DNA of 64,000 bases, from contig NIVC01001175.1 in NCBI GenBank assembly GCA_002269645.1, positions 141,709 to 205,708 of the forward strand, written 5' to 3'. Below the pieces are notes generated by a model. That model made no database searches and was not told where the DNA came from. It worked only from the letters and a program-made list of their open reading frames with translations. A program made the position numbers and the translations under genes. This document shows, piece after piece, positions 15,509-64,000 of the stretch. Each line of letters opens with the position of its first letter. Positions within the stretch are counted from its first letter, which is position 1. This DNA comes from Macrostomum lignano (lineage: Eukaryota).

Positions 15509-35199
<19,691 letters not shown>

Positions 35200-36694
35200 C
35201 TCGCAGTCTGAAGTGTGTCCCCAGCCCGGGCAGCTGTCCCCTGCCCTGCCTGTGCACTGCTGAAGAGGCCGCTCGTGACTAATTGGCGCAGAAGATCCTG
35301 GCAGAAGAAAAAGAGAAAAAAATCAGGCAATAGCGGCAGTTTTTTTAGTTTATGCGACAAGAGAAAATACGTTTGCATGTTTATATGTAAGGGGATCACC
35401 CTGCTTTCCCAAGTCCGCAGTTTCATTTTGGTCGCTAGAGCGGCCTCGATCTGTTTACGCGTGTTGCAGCAGCAGAAATTGAGCAAAAATATGTTATGCG
35501 CACTTCAATGGCTGCTGCTGCAGGGGGCTGCGGGAAATTTGGGGAAGCCAATGAAGCCAATGTTCTTGCGAAAGGCGTCTTGCTAGAAAGCTATTTTTGA
35601 TCTTCTAAGTTTCCTGCTTCTGAAGTTGCAGAAATTGCCTTCGATAGCCCGTGTTTTACTTGGGACGAAAGCTTTGCAAATTTATTTTCCTGAAATTTTC
35701 TTCTTTGAGTCGCCTCAGGTGCGATTCGACCACGTCATAGGCCAGAACTGGATTCCGCGTTCTCACTCTCTGTAAACTGGTCTTTACCGCTGATGCTACA
35801 GATGGACCCCATCTGTAGACACGAATCGAACCAGTGGATCCGACAAACTTTCGAATTTCTAATTAAATCATATAGTTACTGGCATCCAGGATATGAAGGG
35901 TTCGGGTCTTTTAGACACACAATGCACGCACCAAGAACTAAATATGATACTCGCAGTAGCCTATGTGAAATCTGACGGCAGAATACCAAAAAAGAATTTT
36001 GTGAAATATTTATTAAATAAAATTAGGTCAGATTATGTGTGTTGCTGCTCAGACTTCTGACTTAAGCGAAAATTTTGTAAAAAGCGAAAAACTGTTTAAT
36101 ATAAGGCATGCGTTAGAAAGAATTTAAGGTATAAACGCTACCATAAAGAATATTGCGACATGTTAGAGGTGTTCTAATTAAATGCACATAGATTGCAGAT
36201 GTTTTGTAAATAATATAATTACTTGATGGCTCAGCTCTGTAGGTACTGTAGTAAAAAGCAATCCCTGAAACTCAACCCAAAGTAAGAATACTACAGTTTC
36301 TAGTTAGCTCACTGATTGCTGAATTAGTGAATATTATTTTCTCGATAAACTCTTTCTAAACTTGCACACCCGGGGTTTTAAAGTTTGCAGGCAGACCTTC
36401 ATAAGTCACGAAGCCGTCCGAAACGCTTTGGCTAGAAGCGAAAAAATGATAAGTCGCGTCAGGAACAGTTGAAAGGCGAAGACCTGTCAAAATGCTTTTA
36501 ATACACGAAAGGTAGCAATTAGAAAGAAATCGGCCTAAGAATCTTCACGGGGAGCTAAGAGCAACAAAAGGATTAAAACAATATTTTTGCATTCTAAACT
36601 GCTTGTATTAAAATGAAAATTTATGATTTTGTATGAATATGATTTATATCAACTTATTCCGTAGAGAAATTGAGCGGAAAACACCACAAACTAA

Positions 36695-46000: not shown

Positions 46001-49000
46001 CACTTGTCAGCAACAATTCCGAAATCCAACCGAATTTTCGATCTCTTTGAATTGTAGCCGCAGCTGAAAACCTCGAGCTTGTCCTGTCGAATAAGAAGTT
46101 TGTCAAGTTTAATAGTTTTCTTTTCAATGGCTGTTTTGGAAAGTTGTGTGTGTTGGCACTGTAAACCAATCGGTTACAAACATTTTTGTGTGAAGCGGAG
46201 TAGCTTGGCGGTTAACGATTCTGACTCTGTAGTCATACATGCGCAAGGACCAACCCCAAAGCACAGAGCGTACATGCCTGATGATTAAAAAGTCCGGATC
46301 GCTGTACACCCTGTGTATTCAATACCTTTTAGGATCAATCTACACTTGGTCCCAAAAAACACTCCACAACAAAAAGGTAGGTTAAATTTAAGCATGGAGC
46401 ATACATGCGCGATGGTGGATGCGAGTGTGGATGGACTTCTTCGGAGACCAGACCTCACCCGACTGCCCATTGGCTGATTCTGATGCTCCTCAACTCCGCA
46501 ACAATCTTACCCTACCCCAACTCTATGACTCGATATTTGACATACCAGTATGACTGCGCATTGCTGTGGTGTTGTAAGCGATCCTAAGATTACTAAGCAA
46601 TGTAGCGATTCTTTCTGATTGTTTGGTGTGTGCTATATAGTCGAATTAGACCAGAATGTCTCAAGTTCGGGTACCTGTAATAAAAGTGTCTCAAGACCGT
46701 TCTCACCATCTCATCAGAGTCGCCCAGGCCCACAGCCAGCCAGTCGAATGTGTGGCCGAAAATCTCAAACAGCAGCTGGTTGGACGCTGGCATCGGGGTG
46801 ATCAACACGCCGTAGCGGCAGCCGCCGCGGGTGTCGCATGACGGCGGGTAGAGAGCGCAGGTCTTGGTGGAGCCGCAACCGAACATGGTCGGCATGGACT
46901 GCAGCGTGTCCTGTGGGAGGGACGCGTACCAAACTGAAGTTAGAAAATGTTTTAATATCATTTGGCTAGACCCACGGGCCACATGCGGCTAGCGAAGCCT
47001 CTCTATCCGGGTTTTTGGGTCCTTTGAAACTTCGCAATAGCAATCCGTCCGCTCAAGGTTGGTGTCTCTTTTCAGCTCTCTCTCTCCTCTCTTCTCTCCT
47101 CTCTTCCCTCCTCTCCCCTCTCCTCTCTCTCCCCTCTCATCTCTCTCCCCTCCCCTCTTCTCTCCCCTCTCCCCTCTCTCCTCTCGTCTCTCCTCTCTTC
47201 TCTCCCCTCTCCTCTCTCTCCTCTCTTCTCTCCCCTCTCCTCTTTTCCCTCTTCTTTCTCCTGTCTCTTCACTCCCTTCTTCTCTCCTCTTTTATTTTAT
47301 CTTTTCACTCATCCCAACTATGGCCTCTACTCTCATCTCTCATCTCTCATCTCTCATCTCTCATCTCTTATCTCTCATCTCTCATCTCTCAACTTCTATT
47401 TGCTCTCCATTCCACTCTCATCTAGCCCACAGCCAAGAGTTGGATTATTTATCTGACCTTTGAGGTAAAAAAACCTTGCCTACCCCTGATTTGAGTGCTT
47501 TGTTGTTGATCTCTACAGTATTCTAATCTTTACTTAAATGTATTTGCAGTGCTTTAACAAATTAATAAATTTAGCTAAGTTGACAAGGCCCAAACTGAAA
47601 TTTGATTGCTGATCATTTTAGACGTTAGTTCCAGAAAAATGTACATTTTGAGTTGGGTATCGAAATGAAATAAAATAACGCGTTTGTTACATTCTGATAC
47701 TCGTACAGCAGTGATTGACTTCTAGTGATCCTTGATCGAAACCTTGAACCAGCAGTCTCAGTGCAGTCGGCACTGTCGCGACTCTGATCATATTTCATGT
47801 CATATTTGTTCGGAAAAAATTCTATAATTGACTCACATTTCCCAAGGAGAAACTGGCGGGCCCAGCTGAGTTGGGAATGATGGCGCTCTGGATTTCTGTC
47901 TGGTACTTCTCAAATTCAATCACGACAGTGGCGCTGGAGCAAAAAATCAAGAAAGTTATTCGATATTATTTTATAGGAAAGTACAATATGCACTTTTGTT
48001 TATGCGAACTCACGAGAACATTATGGGGCCTTCGTTGGTGGCAGGCGCGGTCCAAGTGCACGTAACCGAGCTGTACATGTCTTTGCCTGCCGTCGAGTGC
48101 CCGACGCAGTTGTTTTCCTGAAAATTTGTCGAGGTAAAACGATGCTTCTAAGGATTTTCTTATCGATTTAAAATCGCGACTATTTGTCATCGAAAGCGAT
48201 GCAGTTCGCCTCACCCCGCCTGGCGCGTACACAGAGAAGTATCTTGGCGGGACAGTCATGCCGGCGGAGGTTGAACAGGCGAAGCTGCCCAGCAGGGGGC
48301 CGAGGTTGGTGTTAGTATAGCCGTTCGATGCTCGGACTGCTTTCATTACGAAGCCGGCGAATTTCGTTGAGCTCGAGACTCCGGCCAGGGTCACTGCGAA
48401 GACAGGTTTTGTGGGAAGCTCAGTTCATGTTAAACTGAGGCATTTACTTTTTGAAATAAATTTTGCGTAAGAATAGTTTTACCTGTCAGAGTGTCCCCTA
48501 CACTCCAGCTGGTCTTACTGACGGAGATGCTGAACTGCTCTTTGCCAGCGATGCCCGGATACATGTTCATCGCATCCACTGGCATCTTGCCCTTGCTGTG
48601 AAATGGCTGCTGGTTGAGGCACGCGAATGCCGGCGGTCCAGATGGGAATGCTGCAATAACAGGATCTCAGGTGTTAGAGACTCAATCTACACTTATCTTT
48701 ATTGAGTTCGTACCCCGTTTGTTTATTTTATTTTATTATCAAATAAAATAAGACTAAAATTCGACTAAAAGAAGGGGTTGTAGCCTAGTGGTTGGAGCGT
48801 CGGACTCATGACTGAATGGTCGGGGGTTCGATTCTCGACCCAATTTGAACAATTTGTGTCCTTGAGCAAGACGCTTAACTCTGCATTGCTTCAGTTCACC
48901 CAGCTGTAAAATGGGTGCCAGCATTAGCTGGGATAACTGAGGGTGTGTGTGGCGACCCCCCCCCCAGTCCTTACGCAGCAGCCGTACGCAGCCGATGCGC

Positions 49001-49196: not shown

Positions 49197-49708
49197 TGGA
49201 ACTAGCAGATAGTGGCAAAGTCTTGAAGCTTGAATGATAGCTGCAATTCCTTACTCTTACAAGGTTTGCAGGAGGAGCAGAAACTAGCTATTAATATGCT
49301 CTCGTAGAATCCGTCTCGTGAGAAGTGGAGGCTGGGCGGTGGACCACTTCTAACCCCAAAGCAACAATTGTAAACGCCTCTCGGCTTCTCGGTCTCTGAT
49401 CTATCTTTCTGTCTCTCACAAAGATTTGTAAGAATAGAAGCATTTGCAATCTTTCAACGCAGTGCTGGACAGAAGAAATGGGTGGGGTGAGAGGGGTTAT
49501 TACTGCATGGCATGCAGTTTTTTTTAACCCAAGCCCACCTTTCGGCAGCAAACTATCAACAAACCTAATTTTGCATTCCCGCTGTTTATCTCTGCTCTGT
49601 CTTTGCATTCTTTCTTTGTCTGACAAGAGTCTGTGAACTCGTAGGCTGTTAGCATGCTCTACAATTAAGGAGCTTCTTCATACAGTACAGACAGTAGTAG
49701 GGCGAATT

Positions 49709-50150
49709 ATGATACTGCCGCACTAGCACTGGCGAGATAGGCGGCAATGCAAATGTATAGGGAAAAATACACTGCGGAGATATGAGCCCTATCTCTGTGC
49801 ATTGGGGACGGCTAAGCACTGCAGAGATATGAGCTCTATCTCTGTGCATTGGGGACGGCTAAGCACTGCAGAGATATGAGCTCTATCTCTGTGCATTGGG
49901 GACGGCTAAGCACTGCAGAGATATGAGCTCTATCTCTGTGCATTGGGGACGGCTAAGCACTGCAGAGATATGAGCTCTATCTCTGTGCATTGGGGACGGC
50001 TAAGCACTGCGGAGATAGAGGCGATTCATGATACTGCCGCACTAGCGCTGGCGAGATAGGCGGCAAAAAGGATATAGGAAAAATACACTGCGGAGAGGAT
50101 CCTATCTCTGTGCATTGGGAACGGCTAAACATTGCAGAGATAAGAGGGGT
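49709..50150. repeat. Subterminal repeats of the Maverick: ~5 x 47-bp hairpin-forming units within a duplicated ~120-bp block
   Basis: The unit core atctctgtgcattggggacggctaagcactgc begins at 49791, 49838, 49885, 49932 and 49979. The block at 49709 recurs at 50028. Confidence 0.9.
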
Positions 50151-50358
50151 GGCCAATCTCTGTGCTCTGTGTTAGGGTAAGGTTATAAAGTTTTACAACT
50201 GCACAGAGGACGGCTGGTGTTGCTTACCTGGATAAGGGGACGGGGGGATACACTAATTACAGCCAGTGGCCTCTATAACGGTAAAGTAATTATTACCTGA
50301 GCATGGCTGGATGTTCATATACGATATGATAAGGAGAGGGCATGCATGTACAAATTAC

Positions 50359-50366
50359 TATATAAG
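50359..50366 (+). promoter_or_regulatory. Candidate TATA box (TATATAAG) for Maverick ORF1
   Basis: About 100 nt upstream of ATG 50468. Confidence 0.5.
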
Positions 50367-50467
50367 CAGCCACGCAAGTACAAATAAACAAATAGACAAA
50401 AACAAATTGTATAAAAGGATTTTTAAAAACCTTACTACTTCTAAAAAACAACTCTTTCTCTTTCAAA

Positions 50468-51841
50468 ATGAAAACTTTTAAAAGTTGTCATAGAGACCTC
50501 TATGAGGTCTGTATAAGCTGCGAAGTGTGCCTGCTTGGAGGCGTGTCCCCAAGACACCACGAGAATGAGAACTGTCTGGTCTCATGCTGGTTGGCATGCG
50601 ACCAGTGCGGCACCGTCGAAGCTCTGCAGGAGGGAAAAATTCCAGCATATCATCGAGGACACAAGATCGTCAGCGATGACAAGAAAAAGCAAGAAAGTAA
50701 CCGCTGGAAAGTAATCCGCGCCATCAAAAAGAGCAACGAGAGAGAAAAGAAGAGCCAGCAGAAAAAGGGAGCCAACAGGAGTCTGCTATCAGCTCACTTG
50801 AGTCAAGTAATTGACTCTACATTGAAGAGGATGAGGCCAAGCGGGTCTTCAGCAGCTGCAGAATTTGAAGTTGAGCTGTCTGCTGGAGTCGAGGCTGCTG
50901 GAGTCGAGGCTGCTGGAGTCGAGGCTGCTGGAGTCGAGGCCGCTGGAGTCGAGGCTGCTGGAGTCGAGGCTGCTGGAGTCGAGGCTGCTGCTGTCATAAA
51001 CTTCATAGAGGAAGATGTCCTGGATCAGTTCCTCAGGGAATTCAACGCTGGTCAGCAGCAGCAGCAGCAGCAACCTGTCTCTTCGGTTCCGGTGATTGCT
51101 GGAAAACAACTTCATCTAATTGAAGACGACCACGAAATGGAAATCCTAGAAGAGGAGGGCAGCGACAATGAGTCGCATAATGCAATTGTGCCACCTGCAG
51201 CTCCAGCCGCCCCAGCTGCTCTGGCCGCCCCAGCTGCTCTGGCCGCCCCAGCTGCTCTGGCCGCCCCAGCTGCTCTGGCCGCCCCAGCTGCTCTGGCCGC
51301 CCCAGCTGCTCCAGCCGCCCCAGCTGCTCTGGCCGCCCCAGCTGCTCCAGCCGCCCCAGCTGCTCTGGCCGCCCCAGCTGCTCTGGCCGCCCCAGCTGCT
51401 CTGTCCGCCCCAGCTGCTCTGTCCGCCCCAGCTGCTCTGGCCGCCCCAGCTGCTCTGGCCGCCCCAGCTGCTCTGGCCGCCCCAGCTGCTCCAGCCGCCC
51501 CAGCTGCTCTGGCCGCCCCAGCTGCTCTGGCCGCCCCAGCTGCTCTGGCCGCCCCAGCTGCTCTGGCCGCCCCAGCTGCTCTGGCTGCCCCAGCTGCTCC
51601 AGCCGCCCCAGCTGCTCTGGCCGCCCCAGCTGCTCCAGCCGCCCCAGCTGCTCTGGCCGCCCCAGCTGCTCTGGCTGCCCCAGCTGCTCCAGCCGCCCCA
51701 GCTGCAGCCTCTACAATTCCAGCTTCTCAATCCGAAACTCCACCCGTGCCAGCTGGAGTTGCCTTCTTTCTGCCTCCTGTCGGCGGGGCTGGGTACGAGG
51801 TAACGATTTTCGAAAATCGTATTAGAATTGTGCCGCTGTGA
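50468..51841 (+). CDS. Maverick accessory protein: Cys/His-rich putative zinc-binding N-terminus, basic region, AGVEA and APAALA repeats (457 aa)
   Basis: Open ATG-initiated ORF with non-repetitive N- and C-termini and in-frame 15-bp and 18-bp repeats. No family recognised. Confidence 0.6.
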   Translation: MKTFKSCHRDLYEVCISCEVCLLGGVSPRHHENENCLVSCWLACDQCGTVEALQEGKIPAYHRGHKIVSDDKKKQESNRWKVIRAIKKSNEREKKSQQKKGANRSLLSAHLSQVIDSTLKRMRPSGSSAAAEFEVELSAGVEAAGVEAAGVEAAGVEAAGVEAAGVEAAGVEAAAVINFIEEDVLDQFLREFNAGQQQQQQQPVSSVPVIAGKQLHLIEDDHEMEILEEEGSDNESHNAIVPPAAPAAPAALAAPAALAAPAALAAPAALAAPAALAAPAAPAAPAALAAPAAPAAPAALAAPAALAAPAALSAPAALSAPAALAAPAALAAPAALAAPAAPAAPAALAAPAALAAPAALAAPAALAAPAALAAPAAPAAPAALAAPAAPAAPAALAAPAALAAPAAPAAPAAASTIPASQSETPPVPAGVAFFLPPVGGAGYEVTIFENRIRIVPL

Positions 51842-52734
51842 CTAAGCAATTTTTGTACTTTTTTGCTTTCTGTGTGGAGTGAGAAATCTACCCATTTATT
51901 GCAATTATTGCTAAAACTTTATTTCAACTAGCTTTTTAAAGTTGAAAGTAGGTACATTAATTAATGATTTGATCATCTCATAACTCTGTATTCGCTTCTA
52001 GGAATCTTGCTTATAAGTTTTCAGTTTTCATTTCCAAATTAGTTTTAAAAAAAGCTCGTAGCTCGTAGTGGCAACCAATATTTTTTTGGTATCCGAGGTA
52101 AAAAAAAATTATTTGAAAAGTAGGTGAAACATTATACAGTTGAATTTAACAAATTAAAATCAACATAACATACTTTCAATAAATTGGTGATGGTTTCGTA
52201 TGCTTGGTGCGATTGATTAGGTATAATTTTCTTTCTACTGCTTTGACGCGGTGTTTCCTCATTCTTTAATTATTGAACTTTTCAGCTATATTTCTGCTTC
52301 TAAACTCTCGTCTGTATTTGTAATTCATTGTTCCATGCATTGTTTATTGACTATGATTGCACCATGTGAATTCGATATTTTTTTAAAAAATATATATATA
52401 ATGTCAGCATTTTTCCACTCGGTGATTGGTTTGTTAATTAACTATTGGCTTCATTTTGCATTTTTTACCGATTGAGTCTGCGTAGGAGGCAAATAGAAAC
52501 GAACTTTTACGAATAGGGATCAATAGAATATGCATGCAGAGAGCTAGCTTAAGGGAGAACCAAAAAAATATAACCAGCATCTACTAGCTTGTAAGTGTGG
52601 ATATTGTACCAGTATTGCAGCAATAAAGACTTACGAAAAAAGATTTCAAATATTCACTCCCAGTTGCTTATGACACTCAGTTGCAGCCAGTAAACACTGT
52701 CAGCTTTTAACTGCTTGCCTTTTCTATGGTTGAG

Positions 52735-53100
52735 CACTCCTGGATGGAGCAGGAGAATGACCACTCATGGATGGAGAATGACCACTCATGGATGGAGAAT
52801 GACCACTCATGGATGGAGAATGACCACTCATGGATGGAGAATGGCCACTCGTGGATGGAGGATGACCACTCGTGGATCGAGTATGACCACCCTTGGGTGG
52901 CCATGACGTCAGCAGCGAGTCAGCAGCCAGCAGCGAGTCGGCAGCCAGCAGCGAGTCGGCAGCCAGCAGCGAGTCGGCAGCCAGCAGCGAGTCAGCAGCC
53001 AGCAGCGAGTCAGCAGCCAGCAGCGAGTCAGCAGCCAGCAGCGAGTCAGCAGCCAGCAGCGAGTCAGCAGCCAGCAGCGAGTCAGCAGCCAACAGCGAGT
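52735..53100. repeat. 21-bp (gatggagaatgaccactcatg) and 18-bp (gccagcagcgagtcagca) tandem repeats, possibly coding (ORF 52726-53106)
   Basis: Direct periodicity; both unit lengths are multiples of 3. Confidence 0.85.
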
Positions 53101-53544
53101 CGGTGACTGATGCACACCAAGGTAAGTGCCTTTATTTATCCTTTTCAACTTACTTAAAAATTTTCTTATCAATGCGATGTATATTATGCAGTCTAAAATT
53201 TTAGTCCAAAGAATGGGAGAAGGGGAGATAAAAGACTTTATACCGGTAGGGTTGTACATGTATGCTTGGGTACAGACGTTTAGTTTAGTATCTTTGATAT
53301 TTGAAACTATAGGCAGCAAAAAACAAAAATATTATCCTAAAACCACAAACCAGGTTCAACAGTCAGCTTCAGCAGAGTTGCCCAAGCCTATGATCAATCA
53401 CTGGAAATACTGAGGCTCAGATCGAGTCACCCAGACACGCTTCCGTCAGAATTTTTTGTCCAAGCTGGAGACAAAATTATTGAGGCAGTTCAGCAAAGAA
53501 TTTCAAGACATCATTACAAAGTTCAGCTAAAGGCGAATATTCGA

Positions 53545-56500
53545 ATGGTCCGAATAAGAGATGGGGAGATGCTTGCCGAAGAGGACAGATGGATAAGCTG
53601 TAAAATGCAGGCCCTAGACCTAGGTGGTGAAGCAGGCCGTTTAAACAACTGGTTGATTGAGCAGGAGCAGGAGTTGGAGAGGATCTGTAGTATGATTAAT
53701 ACGAACGGCAGTGGCTGGACAATTAAACAAATTAATTTTCTAGACATCAACCTTGCCAGGTACAATCCAATTCGATTTCGCCAGGGCAGAGCCGTTAGAT
53801 TCAATCTTCCTGCCAGTTTGAAGAACAAAAAGGCTGTTATCAATCCACCGAGCACAGGCAAAGACTGTTTCCTGTACGCCTGTCTCGCTGCACTGCACAG
53901 CGCCGATCCGAAAGTTCAGAAATCGCCCAACAGAATATCCTCTTACGATGAATGGTTGCGTGAGCTGGACTTTGCAGAAATCTCCATGCCAGTGAGTGTC
54001 GCTGATATCGATCGCGTCGAGTCTAACAATCCAGGAATTTGCATTTCTGCGTTCTCTTGGCAGCAGGGCAGTGTGACTCTTCTCCGTCGCCGCAAGCATG
54101 AGTCAGATGACCGAAGACACCTCATGCTTTTGCTAGTTAAAGACAGCTACGGATCGGAGCACTGGTGTGCAATTACTAATTTTGACAGGTTAATGAACAG
54201 TCGTAATGGTCCCGCCATGAGGAAGTGGTGCACGAAATGTTTAACATCATTTTATAGCAACGAGAGGCTTCAAGAGCACAGGAACGAATGCAGCATTACT
54301 GCAGAAAATCCTGTCAAAGAAACGCTTCCAGTTCCAGGACAGAATGAAATAAAGTTCCGAAACTGTCAAAACACTGTCAGTCCACCATTCGTTGCCTATG
54401 CCGACCTGGAAGCCATTTTGCGAGCGAACACAGACCCTGCTAACCTGATCTCAAAGCATGAACCATGTGCAGCAGCTTTTCTTGCAGTGCCTCGTGAAGG
54501 CATGACAGGACCTCCGCTTAGGCCAGAAGGAGACATGTACAAGGTCTTTTGCAATGCGGACCCTGATGAGTGTATCCTTGGTTTTCTCAAATCTCTTGAA
54601 AGCCTGGCTCAGGATATATTTCACTGGAACCAGAAGCATAGCCACCAGCCGGCTGACCGATCATCCGCGACCGTCATGGATGATTTCAATTCTGCTGAGG
54701 TATGTCACTACTGCAAGAAGAACTTTAAAAGTTCTACAGATAAACATTTTGACCACGATCATTTAAATGGACAGTACAAAGGTGCAGCATGTCAAGAATG
54801 CAACCTGCGAGCACAGCTCCGACGCCGGTTTCTGCCCCTGGTTTTTCACAACTTAGGCGGCTACGACCTTCATCTTCTACTTTCCACTGCGCTTGGGAGC
54901 ATGAAAAATTGGAAACTTAGTGTTGTTCCGCAATCATCCGAGCGATACTTGTCACTAAGGGCGGAATTCCCTGTTGCAAGTTACGTAAAGAACGGAAAAG
55001 TTGTGCCAATCATGTTTACAATTCAGTTCATCGACTCGCTCTGCTTTTTGAAGGGAAGTTTGTCCAATTTGTTTGCTAATCTTCCCGAAGCTGAATGCAA
55101 GCTGACAATGCAAATGCTTGAGTCAAGACCACATCTTTCAAGAGAGCTACTTCGAAAAAAAGGGATTTTCCCATATGATTACCTCACAGGATTTGAGATT
55201 CTCGAGCAGTCGGTTTTGCCGCCTAAAGATGCTTTTTTTAATCGACTTTCCGATCGGGGAATTTCCGACGACGACTACAATAGAGCAAGAGCGGCATGGG
55301 CGGCATTTCAATGCAAAAGTTTGAAGGATTATATGCTCGCCTATCTTGAAATGGATGTAAGGCAGCTGGCTGACATTTTCGAGACATTCCGACAGGCCAG
55401 TCTGAAAGAGGACGGATTGGATCCGGTACACTACTTTACTACTCCTGGTTTGTCTTACGACTCAGCTCTAAAGTCGACTGGAGTGGTTCTAGAGCAGCTG
55501 ACTGATGCTGACATGTATCATCTGTTTGAGAAGGGAATACGAGGAGGCATGTCCTTCATTAATGTGCATTGCGTCAAAGGTAATAATCCTAGCTTGCCAG
55601 GTTATGATGATCAGCAAGAGAGTGTAAGCCTCATGCCGATCGATATGAACAACTTGTATGGCTTTGCCCTGTCGCTTCCGCTTCCATGCAGGGAATTCAG
55701 GTGGGTACCGGAACAGGAAATCCAGTTCTGGGACTCCAATCGGTTTCTGTCACTCAATCCAGAAGCCGAGATCGCCTACCTTGTTCAACTCGATCTAGAA
55801 TACCCAGCTGAGATTCACGATTCGACTCAGGAGTTACCGTTTGCACCTGAAAAATCAAAACCACAGCCAGATCAATTCTCGCCGTACATGGCCGAACTAT
55901 GGAAAGAGATTGCTGAACAGCGAACTGGCAATGCTGAAGCTAAGTTTCAAGCAACGGAGAAGCTTCTACTCACCTGTACCGACAAGGATTCTTACGTAGT
56001 TCACAGCACCGTTTTAAGATTTTACCTGCAACACGGAATGCGGATCAAGTGCGTCAAAAAAATGATTTCGTTCAAGCAGGAAAATATTTTCGCGCCGTAC
56101 ATTGCCAGCAACAATGAAAAAAGAGCTTTGGCAACTTCCGAGTTTGCTAAGGATTTTTACAAATTGAAAAACAATTCTCTCTTTGGAAAAACTATGGAGA
56201 ACGTTCGAAAAAGATGCGATGTTCGAATTTGCACTAACCAGACTCAAGCAGAAACTTGCGCCTCTCGACCAAACTGTGCCGCATTCTCGATTATCAATGA
56301 GTCGTTGAGCATTTTTCAGCTCAAAAAAGATAAAGTCACGCTTGACAAGGCCATTTTCGTTGGCCAGGCAGTTCTCGATCTCTCTAAGATGGCCATGTAC
56401 AGCCTACTATATGACAGGCTCCGACCGCTGTTCTGTCATTCAGACGGTTCCAGAGACATGATGCTTTGCGGAGGTGATACTGACTCATTTTTTCTAGCTT

Positions 56501-57003
56501 TCAAGAATCATGATTTAACATCGGAGGTAATCCCGAAGCTTAGAGAGGAAAAAATACTTGACACATCCAACTATTCTCGAGACCATCCGCATTTCTCTGA
56601 AGAGTTAAAAGGAAAGCTGGGCTGCGTTAAAGATGAATCTGCTGGTGGAATTTACCAGGAGTGGATTCTTTTGCGTCCAAAACTTTATTCGTTTCTCCCT
56701 GCCGAGAATTCGAGTGCAAAGATCAAGAAAACTGCCAAAGGCGTGAAGCAGTCAGTAGTAAGACAGCAAATTTCGCATGCGAACTATGTCGACGCGTTCG
56801 AGTCCAAGCAAGAGCAGATGGTTGCCATGACAGCGATTGTTTCCAAGAAACACGAAATCTTCACGTCGGTCATGGAGAAAAGAAGCCTATCGGTGTGGGA
56901 GGATAAGCGAGTGTGGCTTAGCAGTAATCGAAGCCTGCCCTACGGACACTATGCGCTGACGCCCGCATCCCACGATCAGCTGAAGCGCATCCGACTGGTC
57001 TAG
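53545..57003 (+). CDS. polB: Protein-primed family B DNA polymerase (Maverick/Polinton type), 1152 aa from the first ATG
   Basis: Exo I YADLEA, Exo II FHNLGGYD, FIDS, Exo III YLEMDV, Pol A IDMNNLYG, Pol B KLKNNSLFGK, Pol C GGDTDS, KDE, KTAKGV. The frame is open from 53341. Confidence 0.96.
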   Translation: MVRIRDGEMLAEEDRWISCKMQALDLGGEAGRLNNWLIEQEQELERICSMINTNGSGWTIKQINFLDINLARYNPIRFRQGRAVRFNLPASLKNKKAVINPPSTGKDCFLYACLAALHSADPKVQKSPNRISSYDEWLRELDFAEISMPVSVADIDRVESNNPGICISAFSWQQGSVTLLRRRKHESDDRRHLMLLLVKDSYGSEHWCAITNFDRLMNSRNGPAMRKWCTKCLTSFYSNERLQEHRNECSITAENPVKETLPVPGQNEIKFRNCQNTVSPPFVAYADLEAILRANTDPANLISKHEPCAAAFLAVPREGMTGPPLRPEGDMYKVFCNADPDECILGFLKSLESLAQDIFHWNQKHSHQPADRSSATVMDDFNSAEVCHYCKKNFKSSTDKHFDHDHLNGQYKGAACQECNLRAQLRRRFLPLVFHNLGGYDLHLLLSTALGSMKNWKLSVVPQSSERYLSLRAEFPVASYVKNGKVVPIMFTIQFIDSLCFLKGSLSNLFANLPEAECKLTMQMLESRPHLSRELLRKKGIFPYDYLTGFEILEQSVLPPKDAFFNRLSDRGISDDDYNRARAAWAAFQCKSLKDYMLAYLEMDVRQLADIFETFRQASLKEDGLDPVHYFTTPGLSYDSALKSTGVVLEQLTDADMYHLFEKGIRGGMSFINVHCVKGNNPSLPGYDDQQESVSLMPIDMNNLYGFALSLPLPCREFRWVPEQEIQFWDSNRFLSLNPEAEIAYLVQLDLEYPAEIHDSTQELPFAPEKSKPQPDQFSPYMAELWKEIAEQRTGNAEAKFQATEKLLLTCTDKDSYVVHSTVLRFYLQHGMRIKCVKKMISFKQENIFAPYIASNNEKRALATSEFAKDFYKLKNNSLFGKTMENVRKRCDVRICTNQTQAETCASRPNCAAFSIINESLSIFQLKKDKVTLDKAIFVGQAVLDLSKMAMYSLLYDRLRPLFCHSDGSRDMMLCGGDTDSFFLAFKNHDLTSEVIPKLREEKILDTSNYSRDHPHFSEELKGKLGCVKDESAGGIYQEWILLRPKLYSFLPAENSSAKIKKTAKGVKQSVVRQQISHANYVDAFESKQEQMVAMTAIVSKKHEIFTSVMEKRSLSVWEDKRVWLSSNRSLPYGHYALTPASHDQLKRIRLV

Positions 57004-57585
57004 TGCGGGTGTTTAACAGACTGTTTAGTACTTTTTCTTGCTTTTAGAGTTGTTTAAATTGCCAAATTCTGTTTTAAATGTAGTGACTTGCATGTAGTAA
57101 CTTTTACAAATTTGTATGCTTGGCTAATTGCGCTAGATTTAGCTGTCAATTTGTTTTTGCGGCGTGAAATATTGATATCAATTTAAGTTTTACTTTTTAT
57201 AAAGCTGTGTGGCAAGTGCGCTCATACAATATTAATTCATTTTTGTTTGCTTTGTGTACTACTTGTTTAAAATGTGTTTTTGGTTTTTATCTGACACAAA
57301 TTGTTCCTGTAAATTCAATCAGCGTTTTAATCATATTTTCTCTATCACTTTTCTATTTCTCTTCTCTCGGTGCACATCGTTTGTTATAACGATGGTAGTA
57401 TTGTTTACTTTCGGATTTGATATGCGTTTTGCGATACTTTTGGTGATGGGCTAAATACGTTTTTGAAGTGTTCCATAGCTGTCTGCCTGGGAAAATGAAT
57501 GTAAAGAATACCAAGTTTATCCTTTTATTCACTTTTCACTAATCATTGAAATATTTGCGGCAAATTGCTTGACTTGACTTTATTT

Positions 57586-58158
57586 TTATTCAATGGAAAG
57601 AACTACATTGAGTAGACGCATGCTATCGGTATGCAACTGATTCAAGGACCGAGCTCCACTGAGAACAAAAGAGCCGCTGTGAAAAAGCAGACATTTACAA
57701 AAGTTTAAATTGAAAATTAAAGCAGAAAAGGATTCTGGTTCATATTCGGCGTTTGGGATAATTGATTTTAACATTAATAAGGAAAGTGCGGAATGAACTG
57801 GGAGCTGTCCATGAGCAGTAATAGTTTTAATTCGAACACAAATTGTTTGATGAGGCAGCAGTTGAGCCGGCACTCTCCGATGCAGCATAGCCACGAAGCG
57901 ACGGGCAGCCCTTTTGGCGTCTGCGTGGGTCTTGGCACCGCAGATGCTCAGTTGCCCAGTAGGGTAGAGTAGGAGAGTCACTCTGGGAATCCGCATCCGC
58001 TTGATGAGCACCCGGGGCCAGACGGGCCGGTAGATCACATGAGCCATGCTGAGAGCCAGTTCCCGTAGAGGCAGCTGAGCGCCCCTGCCACCATCCAGTC
58101 TCAGATCTACTCCGCCAACCAGATTGGTCACTCTTAGGGCTGTAGCTGGTGGGCTCAT
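57586..58158 (-). CDS. Divergent TATA-binding protein (TBP)-like protein, core only, ~190 aa, intronless
   Basis: Two TBP repeats: TNLVGGVDL..YRPVWPRVLIKRMRIPRVTLLLYPTGQLSICGAKT..AARRF and EYEPESFSALIF..LLFHSGSFVLSGARS. First ATG is at 58158 (the track start at 58197 is TTG). AATAAA overlaps the stop. Confidence 0.82.
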   Translation of the reverse strand: MSPPATALRVTNLVGGVDLRLDGGRGAQLPLRELALSMAHVIYRPVWPRVLIKRMRIPRVTLLLYPTGQLSICGAKTHADAKRAARRFVAMLHRRVPAQLLPHQTICVRIKTITAHGQLPVHSALSLLMLKSIIPNAEYEPESFSALIFNLNFCKCLLFHSGSFVLSGARSLNQLHTDSMRLLNVVLSIE

Positions 58159-58678
58159 TTCGATCGTCAACTTCTTCACCAAATCTGCTTCTGCCAACTT
58201 TACTGCTCGTGTGCCACGGACACTGCTCGCTTCTTAAGTTGATGCAGAACTTTGGCTTAAGCCAACTGTAGTGCAGCAACGAATTTCTCACTGCACAGCC
58301 AGTATCTGAATCTTCAGTCGAGGGTGCTCCCAAATCTTCTAGGTTATAAACCTGTCTTCCAAGCAGCTCAGTCAGAAAAATCGACTTCCTTTCCCCATTT
58401 GACCAGATCGGACCACTGGCAATGCTCAGAATGTCTTCCGCCAGTTCCATGTACGGACGGGTTCCATCATTCCACTTAAACTGGTGCAGACTCTTAGATA
58501 GCTGTCTGTAGTAAACTCGCATGTCAGGTGAGACTCTCTCCCATGGATACGGAGGTGCGTACACATGGTGAGCAATGTGGTAGCTCCCCGCTCTGATTTG
58601 AACAACTGCCAACTCCTTCACAACAAATTTTTTGCTTGTGCTGTTGCACGGGAATCCTTGGAAGTCAATGTAGTTCAT
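57827..58678 (-). CDS. Maverick-associated RNase H/DEDD-like fold protein
   Basis: N-terminal YIDFQGF..FVVKELA..HHVYAPPYPW..HQFKWNDG..NLEDLG resembles, from recall, an ORF common in animal Mavericks. The C-terminal ~110 aa overlap the TBP-like gene and may be read-through. Confidence 0.55.
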   Translation of the reverse strand: MNYIDFQGFPCNSTSKKFVVKELAVVQIRAGSYHIAHHVYAPPYPWERVSPDMRVYYRQLSKSLHQFKWNDGTRPYMELAEDILSIASGPIWSNGERKSIFLTELLGRQVYNLEDLGAPSTEDSDTGCAVRNSLLHYSWLKPKFCINLRSEQCPWHTSSKVGRSRFGEEVDDRNEPTSYSPKSDQSGWRSRSETGWWQGRSAASTGTGSQHGSCDLPARLAPGAHQADADSQSDSPTLPYWATEHLRCQDPRRRQKGCPSLRGYAASESAGSTAASSNNLCSN

Positions 58679-58707
58679 GATGCAGCTTTCCTTCGAAAAT
58701 TTCGGAG

Positions 58708-59400
58708 TCAGTCCACCTTCTTATATACTTTTCTGGCAGGCAATTTCAGCCAGGCTGTGTTGCTCCCGTACCCCTTGACTAGACTCTCCTGTTCTTTCTC
58801 CAGTTCACCCCCTCTGCTGGTTGCCATTTTCTTCTTAACTGATTTACCAACAGCGGAAAGCGGAACATTAAGCTTTTTCTGCTGCAGAAAATCGATGAAC
58901 TCGTTCCACCCAACTGGTTCACGCTCACATGGCGAATCCCTCACTGTGTGCTGAATCAAGTCCAGTATGTTTGAGGAAGGGATTGACGTGCCTGCGATTT
59001 CCACCTCCCCGTTTTCACAAACTCGAATCAGCTCTGGATTGGTGGACAGGATCGTCCACAGACTGCGAGCCCTGGTTTTGAATTTCTGTGGCACCGACTT
59101 GCTGATCTTCTCTTCCCAGGTGCTTATCTGGGGTGTCTCTGTTTTCATCAACTTGGCTTCAGTATTGCGTGCTCCTTCTTTTCCAGCGTGCTTGCGCTTG
59201 GCCAGCAAACTTTGCATTGCACTTTGGTACATGGCGGTTTTCACATCTTCTGGACAATCCTCGGCATACAAGATGTCATCGCATTTCTTCTGAGCCTGCT
59301 TCAAGTCAGCTTCAGTGGTAGTCTCATTTGGCTTCAAATTCTGCATCAACATCTCATACTCTGCTTTAGGAATCAGAACCATTTCTGAAAATTTGTTCAT
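58708..59400 (-). CDS. Conserved Maverick protein of unknown function (230 aa)
   Basis: GEVEIAGTSIPSSNILDLI..PVGWNEF..NVP resembles, from recall, a recurrent Maverick ORF; located in the packed viral gene block. Confidence 0.65.
   Translation of the reverse strand: MNKFSEMVLIPKAEYEMLMQNLKPNETTTEADLKQAQKKCDDILYAEDCPEDVKTAMYQSAMQSLLAKRKHAGKEGARNTEAKLMKTETPQISTWEEKISKSVPQKFKTRARSLWTILSTNPELIRVCENGEVEIAGTSIPSSNILDLIQHTVRDSPCEREPVGWNEFIDFLQQKKLNVPLSAVGKSVKKKMATSRGGELEKEQESLVKGYGSNTAWLKLPARKVYKKVD
58720..58727 (-). promoter_or_regulatory. Candidate TATA box (TATATAAG) 42 nt upstream of ATG 58678
   Basis: Same octamer as at 50359; position-based inference. Confidence 0.45.
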
Positions 59401-59704
59401 TTTGCTTCTTCTTCTTTACCAGCTTAAGCAGAATCGGGAGTATTTTGATGAAGCCAGCCTTCAACAAGTCTGTCTTTCTTCTTTTGTGAGTAATTTTTCG
59501 AATTATCTCTTTTGACTTTGCAAGAACAGCTTTTTCATCGAGCGAAAACGATAGATTGTTTTGTAAGAGATTATGGCAGGCCTCGACAAGAAAATAACGC
59601 ACTTCTTTTGGACAATTTTTTATCAACAGCCGCTTGAAGCGCACGGTATATTTAGGTGACGCAAGAACCGCAAAAAGACTTGCATATGAATCAAGCACTT
59701 CCAT
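59366..59704 (-). CDS. Small basic Maverick protein, putative virion core (pVII-like), 112 aa
   Basis: EACHNLLQNNLSFS..K..LAKSKEIIRKI..KAGFIKILPILL pattern; ATG at 59704. Confidence 0.6.
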   Translation of the reverse strand: MEVLDSYASLFAVLASPKYTVRFKRLLIKNCPKEVRYFLVEACHNLLQNNLSFSLDEKAVLAKSKEIIRKITHKRRKTDLLKAGFIKILPILLKLVKKKKQNEQIFRNGSDS

Positions 59705-59745
59705 TGCGATGAAAACAATAGCTGATAAAAACAAGCTTCACTTTC

Positions 59746-60425
59746 TTAAGCAAATACAAGATGGGGTCGCTGGTTGGGCAGAATTCTGGCCCGCACTCGC
59801 AGCTCATCGGGAGTTGATGGGTGAAAGTCTAGGAACAGGTAGGCTCCCCTGCCCTGCGCGGTCACGTGCTTGAACACTGACAGCAGAAAGCCGGGCTTCT
59901 CTGTAAAGCACTGCCTGCCCAGTGCTGCAATCTGCAGCTGGTCTCGGGGTTTTTCAAGATAGCTAAGTACATTACATTCAAGCTCATTGTTCGCGACTCT
60001 TTTCCCTTGAAAAATATATTCTGAGTCAGCATCACCAAAAAGCACGGCAAGTGATGTGCGATTCCTGTGAAAAAATTTCGCATTGAAGCAGAGTTTGAAG
60101 TTTCCTCTATTAAGTCATCGAAAACAACCAGGTCATTGGGCCTAAGTGCTGCCTCGATGTTGGTGGGAAATCCCTGGCGCAGCTGCACACCTAGGCTGTT
60201 CAGTTCTGCATGGCCTGCCTGTGAGATCCCATAGTACCACAGAACTCTGCCAGGCTTCACATCAAACATGACGTCTCTGTACTGGATCAGGTGTTCGACA
60301 AAGGTTGTTTTTCCTGCATTGGTGGGCCCGCAGACAATCATGCAGCTTCCCTGCCTGAGGCGGATATCGTAGCAAACTTGCTTTTCTCCCATGTTTAATG
60401 CATAAATATTAGAAATCACGGACAT
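59746..60425 (-). CDS. FtsK/HerA-family (A32-like) genome packaging ATPase with one frameshift
   Basis: Walker A GPTNAGKT, Walker B VVFDD, LTQN. The KNP-RDQLQI motif is split by a missing base in the G4 run at 59946-59949. Confidence 0.9.
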
Positions 60426-60928
60426 CTTTTTCTTAAGTTGGCTTCAAACCTCTGTAAGATTCTATCATTCAAATGATTTTTCTCATTAGCATGCAAATGC
60501 TTCAAAATCCCCTCAAATGACCGATTGAACAGAAACTTTTGATAAGCAAAATAGATGCAAAACATTCCGCATTTATTAGAGTTAGCACATTGAACTCTGT
60601 TTATATTGCTTCGGAGCCAAAAGCCAGTTGTTTTAATCTCTCGAAACAAATTATAAACCAAAGATAAAATTTCAGGTTCCCAGCCGAGGGAGTTGAACAA
60701 CTCAATGCGATTTCCTTGCCCAACATAGCACACCACCCAGTGACCAAATGAGCCATTGTGCTGAAGTAGGACAAAAACAAACTTGTTTTCAAAGGAAATT
60801 GATGATCTAAATTTTCTTTTTACATTCAAGGGCAGAGAATTTTTATAGCGCAAATGTAAAGTAACTATGAGAAATTTTTGGTAAGGCAAAAATTTTCTGG
60901 CGAGATTAAGTAGTTGAATTGCATCCAT
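60416..60928 (-). CDS. Adenain-like capsid maturation cysteine protease (170 aa)
   Basis: GHWV (His), FNSLG (Asp position reads Asn), RVQ (oxyanion Gln), CGMFC (Cys). Confidence 0.88.
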   Translation of the reverse strand: MDAIQLLNLARKFLPYQKFLIVTLHLRYKNSLPLNVKRKFRSSISFENKFVFVLLQHNGSFGHWVVCYVGQGNRIELFNSLGWEPEILSLVYNLFREIKTTGFWLRSNINRVQCANSNKCGMFCIYFAYQKFLFNRSFEGILKHLHANEKNHLNDRILQRFEANLRKRCP

Positions 60929-60933
60929 GTCAA

Positions 60934-62214
60934 TTAAGAGGAATAGTCCAGCAAAAGCTCTCGGTGCTTGGTGACCTCAATCAGCGAGTCATACAGGCAC
61001 ATAGCAATCAGGGACACCGCTTCATTCAGAGCCTGTTGGAAGCGAATCTCCAGCCGCAGGTTGCCCTCCTTCTGTCCGTACCACAGAGCCGCTCCCTCGG
61101 GTGTGAGATCGAATGCAAACACCGTGGTGTTGTTGGAGAAGAGCTGGTAGGGGATCCACGGGACCGAGTTTGTGTGGCTTGCAGATTGACAGCTTTTCAG
61201 GTAGTGCAAGTATTCTCTTACGAAGGAATTGTTTTCAGGTGTGAAGGCGCCGTGGCACACGGTTTCCCCACCTTTCTTTAGAGCCAATCGGCTAAGGTTG
61301 AAGCTCTGGAACTGTAACGGGCTCGCGTGATGATGACCGTTGAATGCTCGGTGGCTCACGAAGGCCAGCATGATGAACTTCGGCAATTTTCCATGAGTGA
61401 ATCCTTCAATGTTTTTTGACTGAATACCCTGGGGTAGGATGAAGTTCTGCATTTCAGTTCGCTCGATGGGATACAGTGCATTTTGGTTTGTCAGCCCCTG
61501 CTCATGGCCAGGCTGATGTGGGGCATCACTTTGACTCGGCGAAGATGCAGAATGCTGTGAGAGATTTCCATTCGGTATGCCGCGTTGTTTGCATTCGGGG
61601 TTCTGATGGCAAAGGCCCATCGCTGGGGACCAGTTTGATGTGCAGGTGCAGATTGCTTAGCAGAAACACTGGGCACTGGAAAACATCGCTGAAGAGCGGC
61701 CCCGCATACTCCATCCATTGGGATTCCCTGTGGCTCTCCGTGTGCTCTTCAGCTGCCGAGTTCGGCTCCAGGAAGCCAGCAGGGTAAAGTTTTAGTTGCT
61801 GGGCATCGGATGAGCTCATTAGTGCTTTGAAGTACGCATGGTAGGGATAGAGCTGGTCTCCACCAGACACCACTCGCTGGTTAATGCTCACAATTACATC
61901 TGAGAAGGCTGTAGACAGAACAAAATTTTCTGGGTGCACGTCACTGTCTCTGCGCTCGGTGATGATGCCATCTCCATCTCGAACATCCTCCCTCAGCAAA
62001 CCCCCATCCAGTCTCACAAGGCGGCAGCGAATATAAAGAAAAGAATTCAAGCAGATCTGTATTCATCGGCAGATTGGTGGCAGTCAAATTCAATGGGAGA
62101 GTTTGCAACAATGGAATTAACTGGGTGAATATCAACATAAGTAGCTTTTTCAATGCAGGTTTGTAGAACGGGCGTCTTAAATAAATCAAGTCTGGGATTG
62201 AATCCGTAAGCCAT
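60934..62214 (-). pseudogene. Double jelly-roll major capsid protein, three apparent frameshifts
   Basis: LDLFKTP..PIEF, YPYHAYFKALM, LHIKL, RRVKVMP, YPIERTE, GKLPKFIMLAFV, VFAFDLTP, GNLRLEIRF. Frame changes near 62055, 61627 and 61507. Confidence 0.88.
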
Positions 62215-62216
62215 GT

Positions 62217-62591
62217 CTATGACAGAGAGTCGAGCACGCGTTTCACAGTTTTCTTGCTGACTTTTTGCTTTCGCTTTCCTCCGCCTGCTCTATTCTTCTT
62301 TGCTTTCGTCTTCCTATTCTTAAGCTTTTTCCACTAGCCTTGCTCGACCTCTTACTGCGATTTCCACCAGTTGCCTTCGGTGCCCTTCTTTTTCTTCAAT
62401 CGTTTCGGACTTGCTTCAGTATTTCTTTTGCGCCTGACGTTGCTAAGCGTCGAGGCTGATGATGATGATATAGCCGCTGGCGGAGGCTGGTATGTCATGA
62501 TCCCTGGGAAGCTCCCACAGCCATAGAGTGCAGGCTTTTCGTGTCCTGTCCTCACCCCCGAATATTGCTGGATTAGCTGCTGGTAGTTCAT
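62217..62591 (-). pseudogene. Lys/Arg-rich Maverick ORF (putative core protein), frameshifted
   Basis: MNYQQLIQQYSG..LYGCG start and a highly basic C-terminal segment (KNRKTKAKKNRAGGGKRKQK) in another frame; stop lies 2 nt before the MCP ATG. Confidence 0.5.
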
Positions 62592-63401
62592 TGAATGCGT
62601 TTCTCCTGAATTGAACTGTAAGCAGAACAGGGCTGTGAGTCTGTGCAATCAGTGGGCAACCATAGATGTCCCGCAGCTGAACTCGAATGCTGTGAAGAAG
62701 ACTGATTCGTTGAATCGGGAAGAATATTGTTTTCTTAAATATTTTTGTTTGATAGTTGCCCCATTCAATGCCGGCTTTCATTCCAACTGTTCTCACAAGG
62801 AGCTCCAGTTGCAATTAGTTGACTCAACGATACTGCAGTGCACATTGATTAAGCTGGTGCGCGGCAGCCAATGCAATGCTCGGATACGCGGCTCCCTGGC
62901 TGGATTTTCACAGCCTGGTTTCCAAATCCCAGCCAATGCAGAATTTTACTAGATGGAAGAAACAGCTCTGCTCTCGCAGTGTTGTTGTGCACCACAGTTC
63001 GTGAGTTGCGGATTTCGAACTTCATACCAAATTCCCTGTTGCCACTACGCCCCATCAGGCCGACTCATCAGCCTCCATCTCAGACTCCCTGTCACTCATT
63101 GCATCAAAGAACAGCGAATCAGAGTTGGCCAGCAGCTCATTCAGCGCTCCACCAGCTCCTCCACTCTAGCAAAGCGTCCGGGTTGAAGAACCAGGGCCTC
63201 ATGCTCTCTTCCATCTGAGACAGTGAAGCAGTAAGGCTCGTCAACATTGAACCATGCAGCAGGCAGATGGATTTCAGCCAGACCTGCCTCATAGTCCACA
63301 TTTCGATCCAAGTAAATAGGTGAAGGCAGGTAAAAATTAAAGTCACTAGGAGTACCTTCAGCATGCTCACTGTTAATCAAAATAGTTCGCATTATAATCA
63401 T
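62588..63401 (-). pseudogene. Minor capsid (penton-like) protein, several frameshifts
   Basis: N-terminal FNFYLPSPIYLD..YEAGLAEIHLP..WFNV; C-terminal SIRVQLRDIYG..VLLTVQFRR. Confidence 0.75.
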
Positions 63402-63428
63402 AAACTACATGATGAGGGCTGTGCAAAG

Positions 63429-64000
63429 CTAAACCTTTCTTAAGTCTTTTCATCCACCCAGCCAGTCGAGTCGTAGCCCGCCCATTTCACCAGATAGCGA
63501 ATTTTCCCTTCCGCTTCTCCGTTTTCAGGATCTTCTCAATCACATACAGCCGCTGTGAGTCCGGGACAGCCTGCAGCTCGTGCTCATGGAAGAGTCCTCG
63601 AATCTCTTGCCCCCGCATGTCTTTAATCTTGTACATGTAGGGATAATGTTTTGGGCTCTGCTCACCACGGTGTACACTTCCTCACTCCAGCTCGCTTTGT
63701 ATCCCTTTTTGAATATCCGTGGAGCATTGAAATTCTCACTGACTGGTTTTCAGCGAACTTAGGCTTCTTTAATTTTTCTAGAGTCTCGACTGCTTTTCCA
63801 TCGTACAGGTTCATCCACACTTCAGATTCATTCTCTTGCAGACACTAGTGGGTGCCATTTTGATGCTTCTGTGGTAGGTATTGTTGTAGGATTTTACCAA
63901 GCTTAGGCAGCACATCAAAGCCAGGCAGTGTGCTCTTGTAGGTGAAGTAGCGCCACATTCTACTTTTCAGAGTTCGATTCCATCGCTCAATGACAGCTGC
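63429..64000 (-). pseudogene. Retroviral-type (c-)integrase C-terminal half with chromodomain, frameshifted, continues beyond the window
   Basis: Manual translation: VIERWNRTLKSRMWRYF, SYNNTYHRSIKMAP, FKKGYKASWSEEVY, YVIEKIL..YLVKWAGY. Confidence 0.85.

Follow-up and report, generated by a model that had tools for sequence, protein, structure and literature searches.

A TATA-binding protein gene in Maverick elements of Macrostomum lignano and a TATA-like word before their gene starts

A 64,000-nucleotide (nt) stretch of the Macrostomum lignano genome (G000:C1175:141,709-205,708, contig NIVC01001175.1; hereafter the window, in which all positions below are numbered) ends within a Maverick/Polinton element that encodes a two-lobed TATA-binding protein (TBP). 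This viral TBP is under purifying selection in both lobes, and divergent TBPs (17-37% identity) sit in three further Maverick lineages of the same genome. A short TATA-like word recurs before the genes on the minus strand of the element, and we give an even chance to a model in which the viral TBP would bind the family's word and would bring host TFIIB and RNA polymerase II (Pol II) to the genes for integrase, capsid and packaging. Publications are cited here for those parts of their text that were available.

Results

A TBP gene maintained across Maverick families

The gene lies between the capsid genes and pPolB:

57,586-58,158, minus strand: TBP, 190 amino acids (aa), two lobes; its stop codon overlaps AATAAA signals and a junction lies near 57,810, between the lobes

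An earlier note on this DNA had called the product TBP-like, a call borne out by Pfam (PF00352, E 7.9e-25, in two stretches) and by matches to 35 TBP sequences in the PDB, with alignments spanning both lobes. Identity to the host TBP is 29%. The copy-number check that the note had proposed gave at least 152 matches to the TBP in its own genome, 33 of them near-full-length at 99-100% identity (among the best 150 of 231 candidates scored), and at least 41 to the first 100 nt of the element, 40 of them at 99-100% (best 40 of 131 candidates scored). The TBP matches form subfamilies at 99-100, ~89, 74-83 and 38% identity; the gene was open in 28/28 fetched stretches covering it, some copies being counted twice, and all seven elements sampled from these matches (7/7) were Mavericks in which a MAEL-like gene overlaps the TBP gene. 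Purifying selection is seen in the N-lobe as a nonsynonymous divergence (dN) of 0.01-0.08 against a synonymous divergence (dS) of 0.06-0.68, and in the C-lobe as a dN of 0.18-0.40 against a dS of 1.3-2.8 or saturated (6 subfamilies, 15 pairs).

The gene was also present at 7/7 loci of family B, and was detected in 11 of 14 elements picked with a distant capsid query, as two C-type and four D-type proteins. Three of those 11 were found by a profile not trained on them (E 1e-20 to 1e-23); two of the misses were elements cut by contig starts and one had no explanation. Pfam placed three of the six C- and D-type TBPs over its cut-off, two just under it and left one blank; their identity was 17-24% to the A and B types and 15-19% between C and D, and a profile comparison of A1 with A3 TBPs gave 97% probability. 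No TBP was found in six elements of two PF21738-type families (14-19 kb each, possibly incomplete stretches). In a quick-mode tree with long branches, from which 12 of 145 added rows and the C and D types were left out, the 15 A/B-type TBPs formed one group apart from both host genes (Shimodaira-Hasegawa-like approximate likelihood ratio test, SH-aLRT, 88). Among metagenome proteins, P0009 was at most 54% identical to anything in G000 and P0014, P0155 and P0156 were 60-63% identical to family B. These four are taken as kin by sequence, since no Maverick context was found outside the genome: viral contigs gave no TBP relatives with genomic context for the A1, A3, MCP (major capsid protein) or pPolB queries, phage records gave none, and six metagenome loci held weak TBPs (23-33%) without a Maverick gene nearby.

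Mavericks are known to carry host cargo (PMC11131425), and the gene might accordingly be a neutral passenger recently captured from the host TBP or TLF. This explanation is already largely refuted and we give it almost no credence: a protein only 29% identical to the host TBP is kept by purifying selection in lineages whose capsids are 26-45% identical, its relatives turn up in unrelated metagenomes, and the A/B types group apart from both host genes.

Near 57,810 the identity of the TBP gene to three sister subfamilies falls from 88-100% to 55-73%, which reads as a recombination junction between the two lobes. The same junction parts the capsid module (MCP, 85-99%) from pPolB (46-49%), and the crossover falls inside the TBP gene, between the lobes, in 3/3 subfamilies compared. 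As a separate observation, the D-type TBP frames (L074, L084, L086, L087) have no Met and start at acceptor-like pyrimidine tracts, and for this reason D-type TBPs are probably spliced or trans-spliced. One of these frames (L087:3,940-5,346, minus strand) runs into a deoxynucleoside kinase (PF01712, E 1e-24), a joint that may be a fusion or an assembly slip.

Residues facing TFIIB and DNA

TBP and TFIIB are a textbook pair. Across 12 aligned TBPs, Glu142 and Phe144 were invariant and position 140 was always acidic (12/12), the position codes of PMC7221094 having been matched to alignment columns by inference. In that study two stirrup glutamates contact TFIIB and are ~40% conserved in viral TBPs, most of which diverge at those glutamates and bring their own viral TFIIB. 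None of the 15 TFIIB (PF00382) matches in the present genome lay on contigs fetched as Mavericks (23/23 candidates scored), a very divergent TFIIB being possible. On the DNA-contacting side, the second key aromatic of the N-lobe is Tyr in 10/12 and Phe in 2/12, and the last Phe is kept in 10/12. At the four intercalating Phe positions the window TBP has Trp (alignment uncertain), Tyr, Phe and Phe, all aromatic but not canonical; the Tyr-Pro signature is shared by only 1 of 145 other matches, and a Phe-to-Tyr change alters TATA binding (PMC7221094).

A TATA-like word before gene starts

The TATA-like word of the window element is CTTAAGAA; TATAAGAA, TATAAATA and TATAAGYA are other words found elsewhere. 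The sites are as follows:

58,231-58,238, minus strand: CTTAAGAA, 80 nt before the TBP start
58,718-58,725, minus strand: TATAAGAA, before the MAEL-like start
59,743-59,750, minus strand: CTTAAGAA, 46 nt before a 112-aa open reading frame (ORF)
60,430-60,437, minus strand: CTTAAGAA, 45 nt before the conserved ATPase Met
62,317-62,324, minus strand: CTTAAGAA, inside the basic core-like gene, 110 nt before the MCP start
63,437-63,444, minus strand: CTTAAGAA, inside the integrase gene, 44 nt before the start of the penton-position gene

In family A, each CTTAAG site of the 8.3-kb block (8/8) is followed by a start within 110 nt. TAAGAA fell 25-160 nt before a start in 9/9 cases in A (P 3e-7), 8/10 in A2 (P 5e-5) and 5/7 in B (P 0.005), family B having been held out when this positional enrichment was tested; the first Met or homology defined the starts, some of which may be misplaced. 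The window element has 10 TAAGAA sites on the minus strand against none on the plus strand, and none within its terminal inverted repeat (TIR). A permutation of the best word gave P 0.001 in A and 0 of 1000 in A2, and when gene tails were recoded synonymously the word was still in excess, with 5/8 observed against 1.1 expected and 6/9 against 1.5 (P 0.0004; A and A2). Families B, C and D carry CTATAAGAA, CTATAAATA and TATAAG(C/T)A at distances similar to those of family A, and a cross-family pattern preceded 35 of 70 starts in eight TBP-bearing elements (background 4-11%) and 3 of 22 starts in three TBP-less elements (background 9-12%). As to expression, no listed holder of the sequence is on record as RNA, the splice joint in pPolB described below being the one observation used from short-read contigs, and no spliced-leader-like loose end was recognised in those contigs when judged by eye.

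The word could instead be a by-product of gene ends encoding Leu-Arg-Lys or Lys-Lys followed by stops, the TBP being functional and long transcripts being resolved by splicing or by trans-splicing, which occurs in M. lignano (PMC8629364). Several sites do coincide with basic C-termini, the recoding control is not significant in family B, and the acceptor-like tracts of the D-type TBP frames would suit such processing. Against this, recoding that preserves the peptides still leaves P 0.0004 in two subfamilies, some sites lie in intergenic DNA, and the spacing is kept between A and B, with the word 148 nt before the basic gene in A and a matching site in B, and 110 versus 105 nt before MCP. We regard this explanation as improbable, if well short of negligible.

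A model for a late-gene switch

As its gene content suggests, the element would integrate by means of its rve integrase, with 6-bp duplications, and replicate by protein-primed synthesis, both of which are established Polinton biology. The plus-strand genes would be read first by the host machinery. The viral TBP would then bind CTTAAGAA, which stands ~45-60 nt ahead of the integrase, capsid and packaging start codons, and the acidic stirrup that the protein has retained in its C-lobe would recruit host TFIIB and Pol II. The result would be a late-gene switch, possibly self-amplifying because the word also precedes the TBP gene itself. A precedent for this logic is found in ORF24 of KSHV (Kaposi's sarcoma-associated herpesvirus) and its TATTWAA late promoter (PMC12529657). 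We extend the model more tentatively, and at somewhat less than an even chance, to a broad clade of animal Mavericks that would long have possessed a TBP of its own, together with a variant TATA box evolving alongside it, as a one-protein late switch working through host TFIIB and Pol II; the CTTAAGAA of family A would be unreadable by the host TBP, the capsid genes would stay silent until the viral TBP was made, and the gene would have been overlooked because identity drops to 15-23% between lineages.

Several observations weigh against the model. The word was first spotted by eye and then tested, the counts are biased toward TBP-bearing elements because the size of the counting window and the cross-family pattern were set afterwards, and six TBP-less elements were possibly not fetched whole. 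The best words found de novo in B, C and D were not significant (P 0.20-0.99), the recoding control failed in B (2/6, P 0.20) and whole-ORF counts were only marginal (P 0.05, 0.02, 0.16). Within family A, 3/10 starts had no word within 110 nt, and that of MCP lies 110 nt away. The DNA-contact residues are worn: the first N-lobe Phe has become Trp, His or a non-aromatic residue, the second is the Tyr noted above in 10/12, the C-lobe Asn is replaced by Thr or Ser, and in family C the last Phe is a Cys. Finally, the words of B, C and D are near-canonical TATA boxes that the host TBP could use.

This last point also favours an alternative in which the host TBP or TRF reads the words and the viral TBP has another role, most simply that of a decoy for host TFIIB or Brf1 that damps host transcription or defence, and so does the better conservation of the TFIIB-side residues (12/12) than of those on the DNA side. 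We consider it unlikely, although it deserves to be taken seriously: the CTTAAGAA of family A departs from TATA at its first two bases, the same family has Ser or Thr in place of the TBP Pro to which a preference for T at position 1 is ascribed (B and C, too, are without this Pro yet keep TAT), the key aromatic positions are mostly kept, and the words are scarce in TBP-less families (3/22). Drifted DNA-contact residues would also fit a TBP with a non-transcriptional task on DNA, for example one that bends the terminal repeats during replication, integration or packaging; moreover, at the junction near 57,810 the C-lobe goes with the pPolB module, and the TBP gene adjoins pPolB in family D. Such a task would leave the invariant TFIIB-contact acids and the word before gene starts without explanation, and the TIR holds no TAAGAA, so that we judge it very improbable. 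The switch driven by the viral TBP is the reading that we prefer.

Identity and ends of the element

The window element is a Maverick/Polinton (polintovirus), and the copy is young, from a recently amplified Macrostomum Maverick. Its left end is preserved:

49,693-50,016, plus strand: left TIR; starts AGTAGT, holds 5.3 copies of a 47-nt repeat, with a patchy match on to ~50,165

The features found comprise TIRs, a target-site duplication, pPolB, an rve integrase, a double jelly-roll MCP, an adenain-like protease and a size within ~13-25 kb. The (AGT)2//(ACT)2 terminal motif of Mavericks (PMC8097293) is present at the left end in the window and at both ends in six sister pairs, one right end being imperfect, and target-site duplications of 6 bp flank three of these six pairs (one with an extra terminal triplet), with no match in the other three. 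The element measures 16.5-16.9 kb in four paired copies, and two other pairs span ~20 and ~26 kb. The terminus reported in the earlier note was found at 49,693, and its core identification agrees with Pfam for pPolB, the protease and (in a sister copy) the rve integrase and with Atlas for MCP. The note called the copy near-complete; the window has ~14.3 kb of ~16.7 kb. The last base of the window is the end of the contig and cuts the integrase gene, so that a sister copy is longer by 2,373 nt, which include the integrase start, a PC4-like gene (PF02229, E 5.5e-8 in the sister) and the right TIR.

Genes of the plus strand

50,468-51,841, plus strand: 457-aa Cys-rich ORF; three CXXC, then low-complexity 15- and 18-nt repeats; TATA-like words upstream
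52,726-53,121, plus strand: pPolB exon 1, rich in repeats; the frame is interrupted near 52,900 in the window copy
53,122-53,353, plus strand: pPolB intron, 232 nt, GT..AG
53,354-57,003, plus strand: pPolB exon 2, open; 1,152 aa from the first Met (ORF 53,545-57,003)

In position and make-up the Cys-rich ORF appears to fit the Oncoid accessory of adintoviruses, a class of proteins encoded upstream of PolB that combine paired CXXC with LXCXE or CR1 (PMC8502044); an LXCXE motif was not found in it. The polymerase matched PF03175 (E 2.1e-12), with 8/8 of the motif patterns sought and Cys/His motifs present, and its second exon has putative terminal-protein and OTU, Zn finger, exonuclease and polymerase parts, assigned by motif in the domain order of PMC11161782. 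It had been described as intact, a term that we limit to this open second exon because the exon-1 frame is broken in the window copy; that frame was open to a Met in 6/6 sister copies checked. The splice joint was seen in one contig of run X1 (one of four runs), and the 232-nt intron length was the same in 7/7 copies.

Genes of the minus strand

57,827-58,678, minus strand: RNase H-fold, MAEL-like ORF, 283 aa; its final 332 nt lie over the TBP N-lobe in a different frame
58,708-59,400, minus strand: 230-aa conserved Maverick ORF, with homologues in families B, C and D
59,366-59,704, minus strand: 112-aa basic ORF, pVII-like in the earlier note
59,746-60,425, minus strand: putative packaging ATPase with Walker A/B; its frame is broken near 59,940
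60,416-60,928, minus strand: adenain-like cysteine protease (PF00770, E 7.2e-5, over the Pfam cut-off)
60,934-62,214, minus strand: MCP (double jelly-roll), in three pieces in the window copy
62,217-62,591, minus strand: basic core-like protein, broken in the window copy
62,588-63,401, minus strand: gene at the minor capsid (penton) position, broken in the window copy
63,429-64,000, minus strand: rve integrase with chromodomain, C-terminal part; broken, and truncated where the contig ends

The gene order is the one given in the earlier note. For MCP, Atlas scored 0.98 on an 80%-identical relative (P0158), in a cluster with PF21738 in 65% of its members; there was no direct Pfam match, and a profile search of the PDB gave 0 matches. 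The integrase of a sister copy matched rve (PF00665, E 3.2e-13) and chromo. The ATPase had only weak P-loop matches in Pfam, NCBIfam and PHROGs, and is putatively A32/FtsK-like from its motifs and context. No family match in these three databases was obtained for the 230-aa ORF, the penton-position gene or the pVII-like gene, the last two being presumed penton and pVII-like from their position.

The MAEL-like ORF had an Atlas lead of 0.88 to PF13017, below the Atlas mark of 0.9, and of 0.94-0.96 to unnamed arthropod clusters. Its frame is stop-free for ~110 codons over the TBP N-lobe (57,827-58,158) in families A and B, with a similar overlap in C, a length unexpected by chance (P 0.013, 0.015, 0.002); the tail peptide is not conserved. 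A function of this tail at the protein level was considered and rejected, dN exceeding dS in that frame. The PC4-like gene, beyond the contig end in the window, was seen in families A and B (L003:7,619-8,395, minus strand); it would be a second general-transcription-type or ssDNA-binding factor, and in family B it stands on the opposite strand, beside TBP.

The accessory set had been called unusual, which holds for TBP only; the Cys-rich and RNase H-like genes appear to fit the known adintovirus accessories Oncoid and MAEL. Those two are not new, and TBP is the finding. The earlier note, right about the presence of a TBP-like gene, had overlooked that it is ancient and family-wide; nor did it mention a promoter-like word, an intron in pPolB, a PC4-like gene or the junction at which modules were swapped.

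Gene breaks in the window copy

From 53,545 to 58,700 the window copy is 100% identical to two sister copies, and from 58,701 to 64,000 it shows 1 mismatch and 21-22 gaps against its closest sisters, 22 of 23 gap columns versus one sister falling within the last 2.5 kb. Frameshifts affect MCP, the basic protein, the penton-position gene, the integrase and the ATPase. Short-read contigs from four runs, which as assemblies drop rare variants, differed from the window by indels at most of 12 sites listed (18 further). Because the gaps cluster in the last 2.5 kb and the short-read contigs differ by indels, the breaks in the first four of these genes are most likely contig-end sequencing errors. 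The ATPase break near 59,940 was present in 11/19 copies covering the site; read as a possible signalled frameshift, it is opposed by its absence from the other 8/19, and short-read contigs gave no decision.

Other Mavericks and the host neighbourhood

At least six Maverick families are present in the genome. Near-identical copies are numerous, and many copies lie at contig ends. Loci L005 and L007 have the same right flank and different left flanks, which suggests assembly joins between Maverick copies. Family D carries dUTPase and PLA2-like genes, and family C a Fic-domain gene (L074:2,665-3,733; L072:1,912-2,691). To the left of the window element lie exons of a host cytochrome b561 gene (PF03188; 44,664-46,961, minus strand), so that the Maverick stands ~2.7 kb upstream of it or in an intron; a DOMON-like part presumably belongs to this gene. 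A host SK potassium channel gene (PF03530) has exons at 29,705-35,322, minus strand, among long simple repeats. A tRNA-like 5' sequence (48,770-48,960, plus strand) suggests, by eye, a short interspersed element (SINE), and fragments at 8,223-8,759 (minus strand) and 9,022-10,023 (plus strand) are presumably of a Tc1-like transposase and a Gypsy-like integrase.

Discussion

How the capsid genes of integrated Mavericks are turned on, and with that whether and when particles are made, is an open question. The Macrostomum elements offer a candidate activator together with a short candidate promoter, and this animal allows tests of both by RNA interference (RNAi) and transgenesis. If our model is true, they would hold a minimal viral TBP that uses host TFIIB, unlike the pairs of giant viruses and the mimics of herpesviruses, and a natural series of TBP-promoter variants.

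No report that animal Mavericks have a TBP or a late promoter was found in the open literature, a scope outside which lie subscription papers, Repbase and Starrett Figs S1 and S3, and literature on Macrostomum together with Polinton came to one unrelated paper. The term TBP is absent from the available text of PMC10748475, PMC8097293, PMC11131425, PMC11161782 and 10.64898/2026.06.19.733378 and from the readable text of the PMC8502044 supplement.

With the animal Mavericks or adintoviruses (Polintoviricetes; PMC8502044, PMC8097293) the window element shares (AGT)2 TIRs, 6-bp duplications, a length of ~16.7 kb and convergent modules, together with pPolB, rve integrase, putative ATPase, protease and capsid genes and Oncoid-position, MAEL-like and ssDNA-binding accessories; published maps of animal adintoviruses carry the labels MAEL, SSDBP and dUTPase (PMC8502044 supplement). 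A possible likeness to Alpha-type adintoviruses (OTU-pfam03175 PolB) is suggested by the PF03175 match and the Cys/His motifs. It differs from the animal maps in its TBP, its pPolB intron, none having been seen in intact vertebrate elements (PMC8097293), and the TATA-like word before its late genes. A TBP label does appear for non-animal MELD/polinton-like viruses in the legends to Figs 5 and 6 of Starrett et al. (10.1101/697771). The resemblance is that a mid-size virus with linear dsDNA has a TBP-like gene, accompanied in Fig. 5 by an adintovirus-like PolB; those figures, compared here by their legends, concern mainly non-animal datasets, and the available passages propose no promoter or function.

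The TBPs of large dsDNA viruses (PMC7221094) are likewise two-lobed and virus-coded, with a diverged N-lobe partner surface. Most of them have a viral TFIIB as partner and differ at the stirrup glutamates, whereas the Maverick TBP keeps these glutamates; no viral RNA polymerase was found among the ORFs of the element. KSHV ORF24 (PMC12529657), one of the TBP mimics of beta- and gamma-herpesviruses, resembles our model in combining a viral TBP-fold protein and a variant TATA word with host Pol II at late genes, but it is large and belongs to a viral complex of six factors with direct binding to Pol II, whereas the Maverick protein is a bare 190-aa TBP core with sequence-level TBP homology. Lastly, exchange of pPolB between Polintons is known (PMC10748475), and there too the replication module is swapped against a shared capsid module, as here (pPolB 46-49%, MCP 85-99%); unlike in that exchange, the crossover in Macrostomum falls repeatedly inside the TBP gene.

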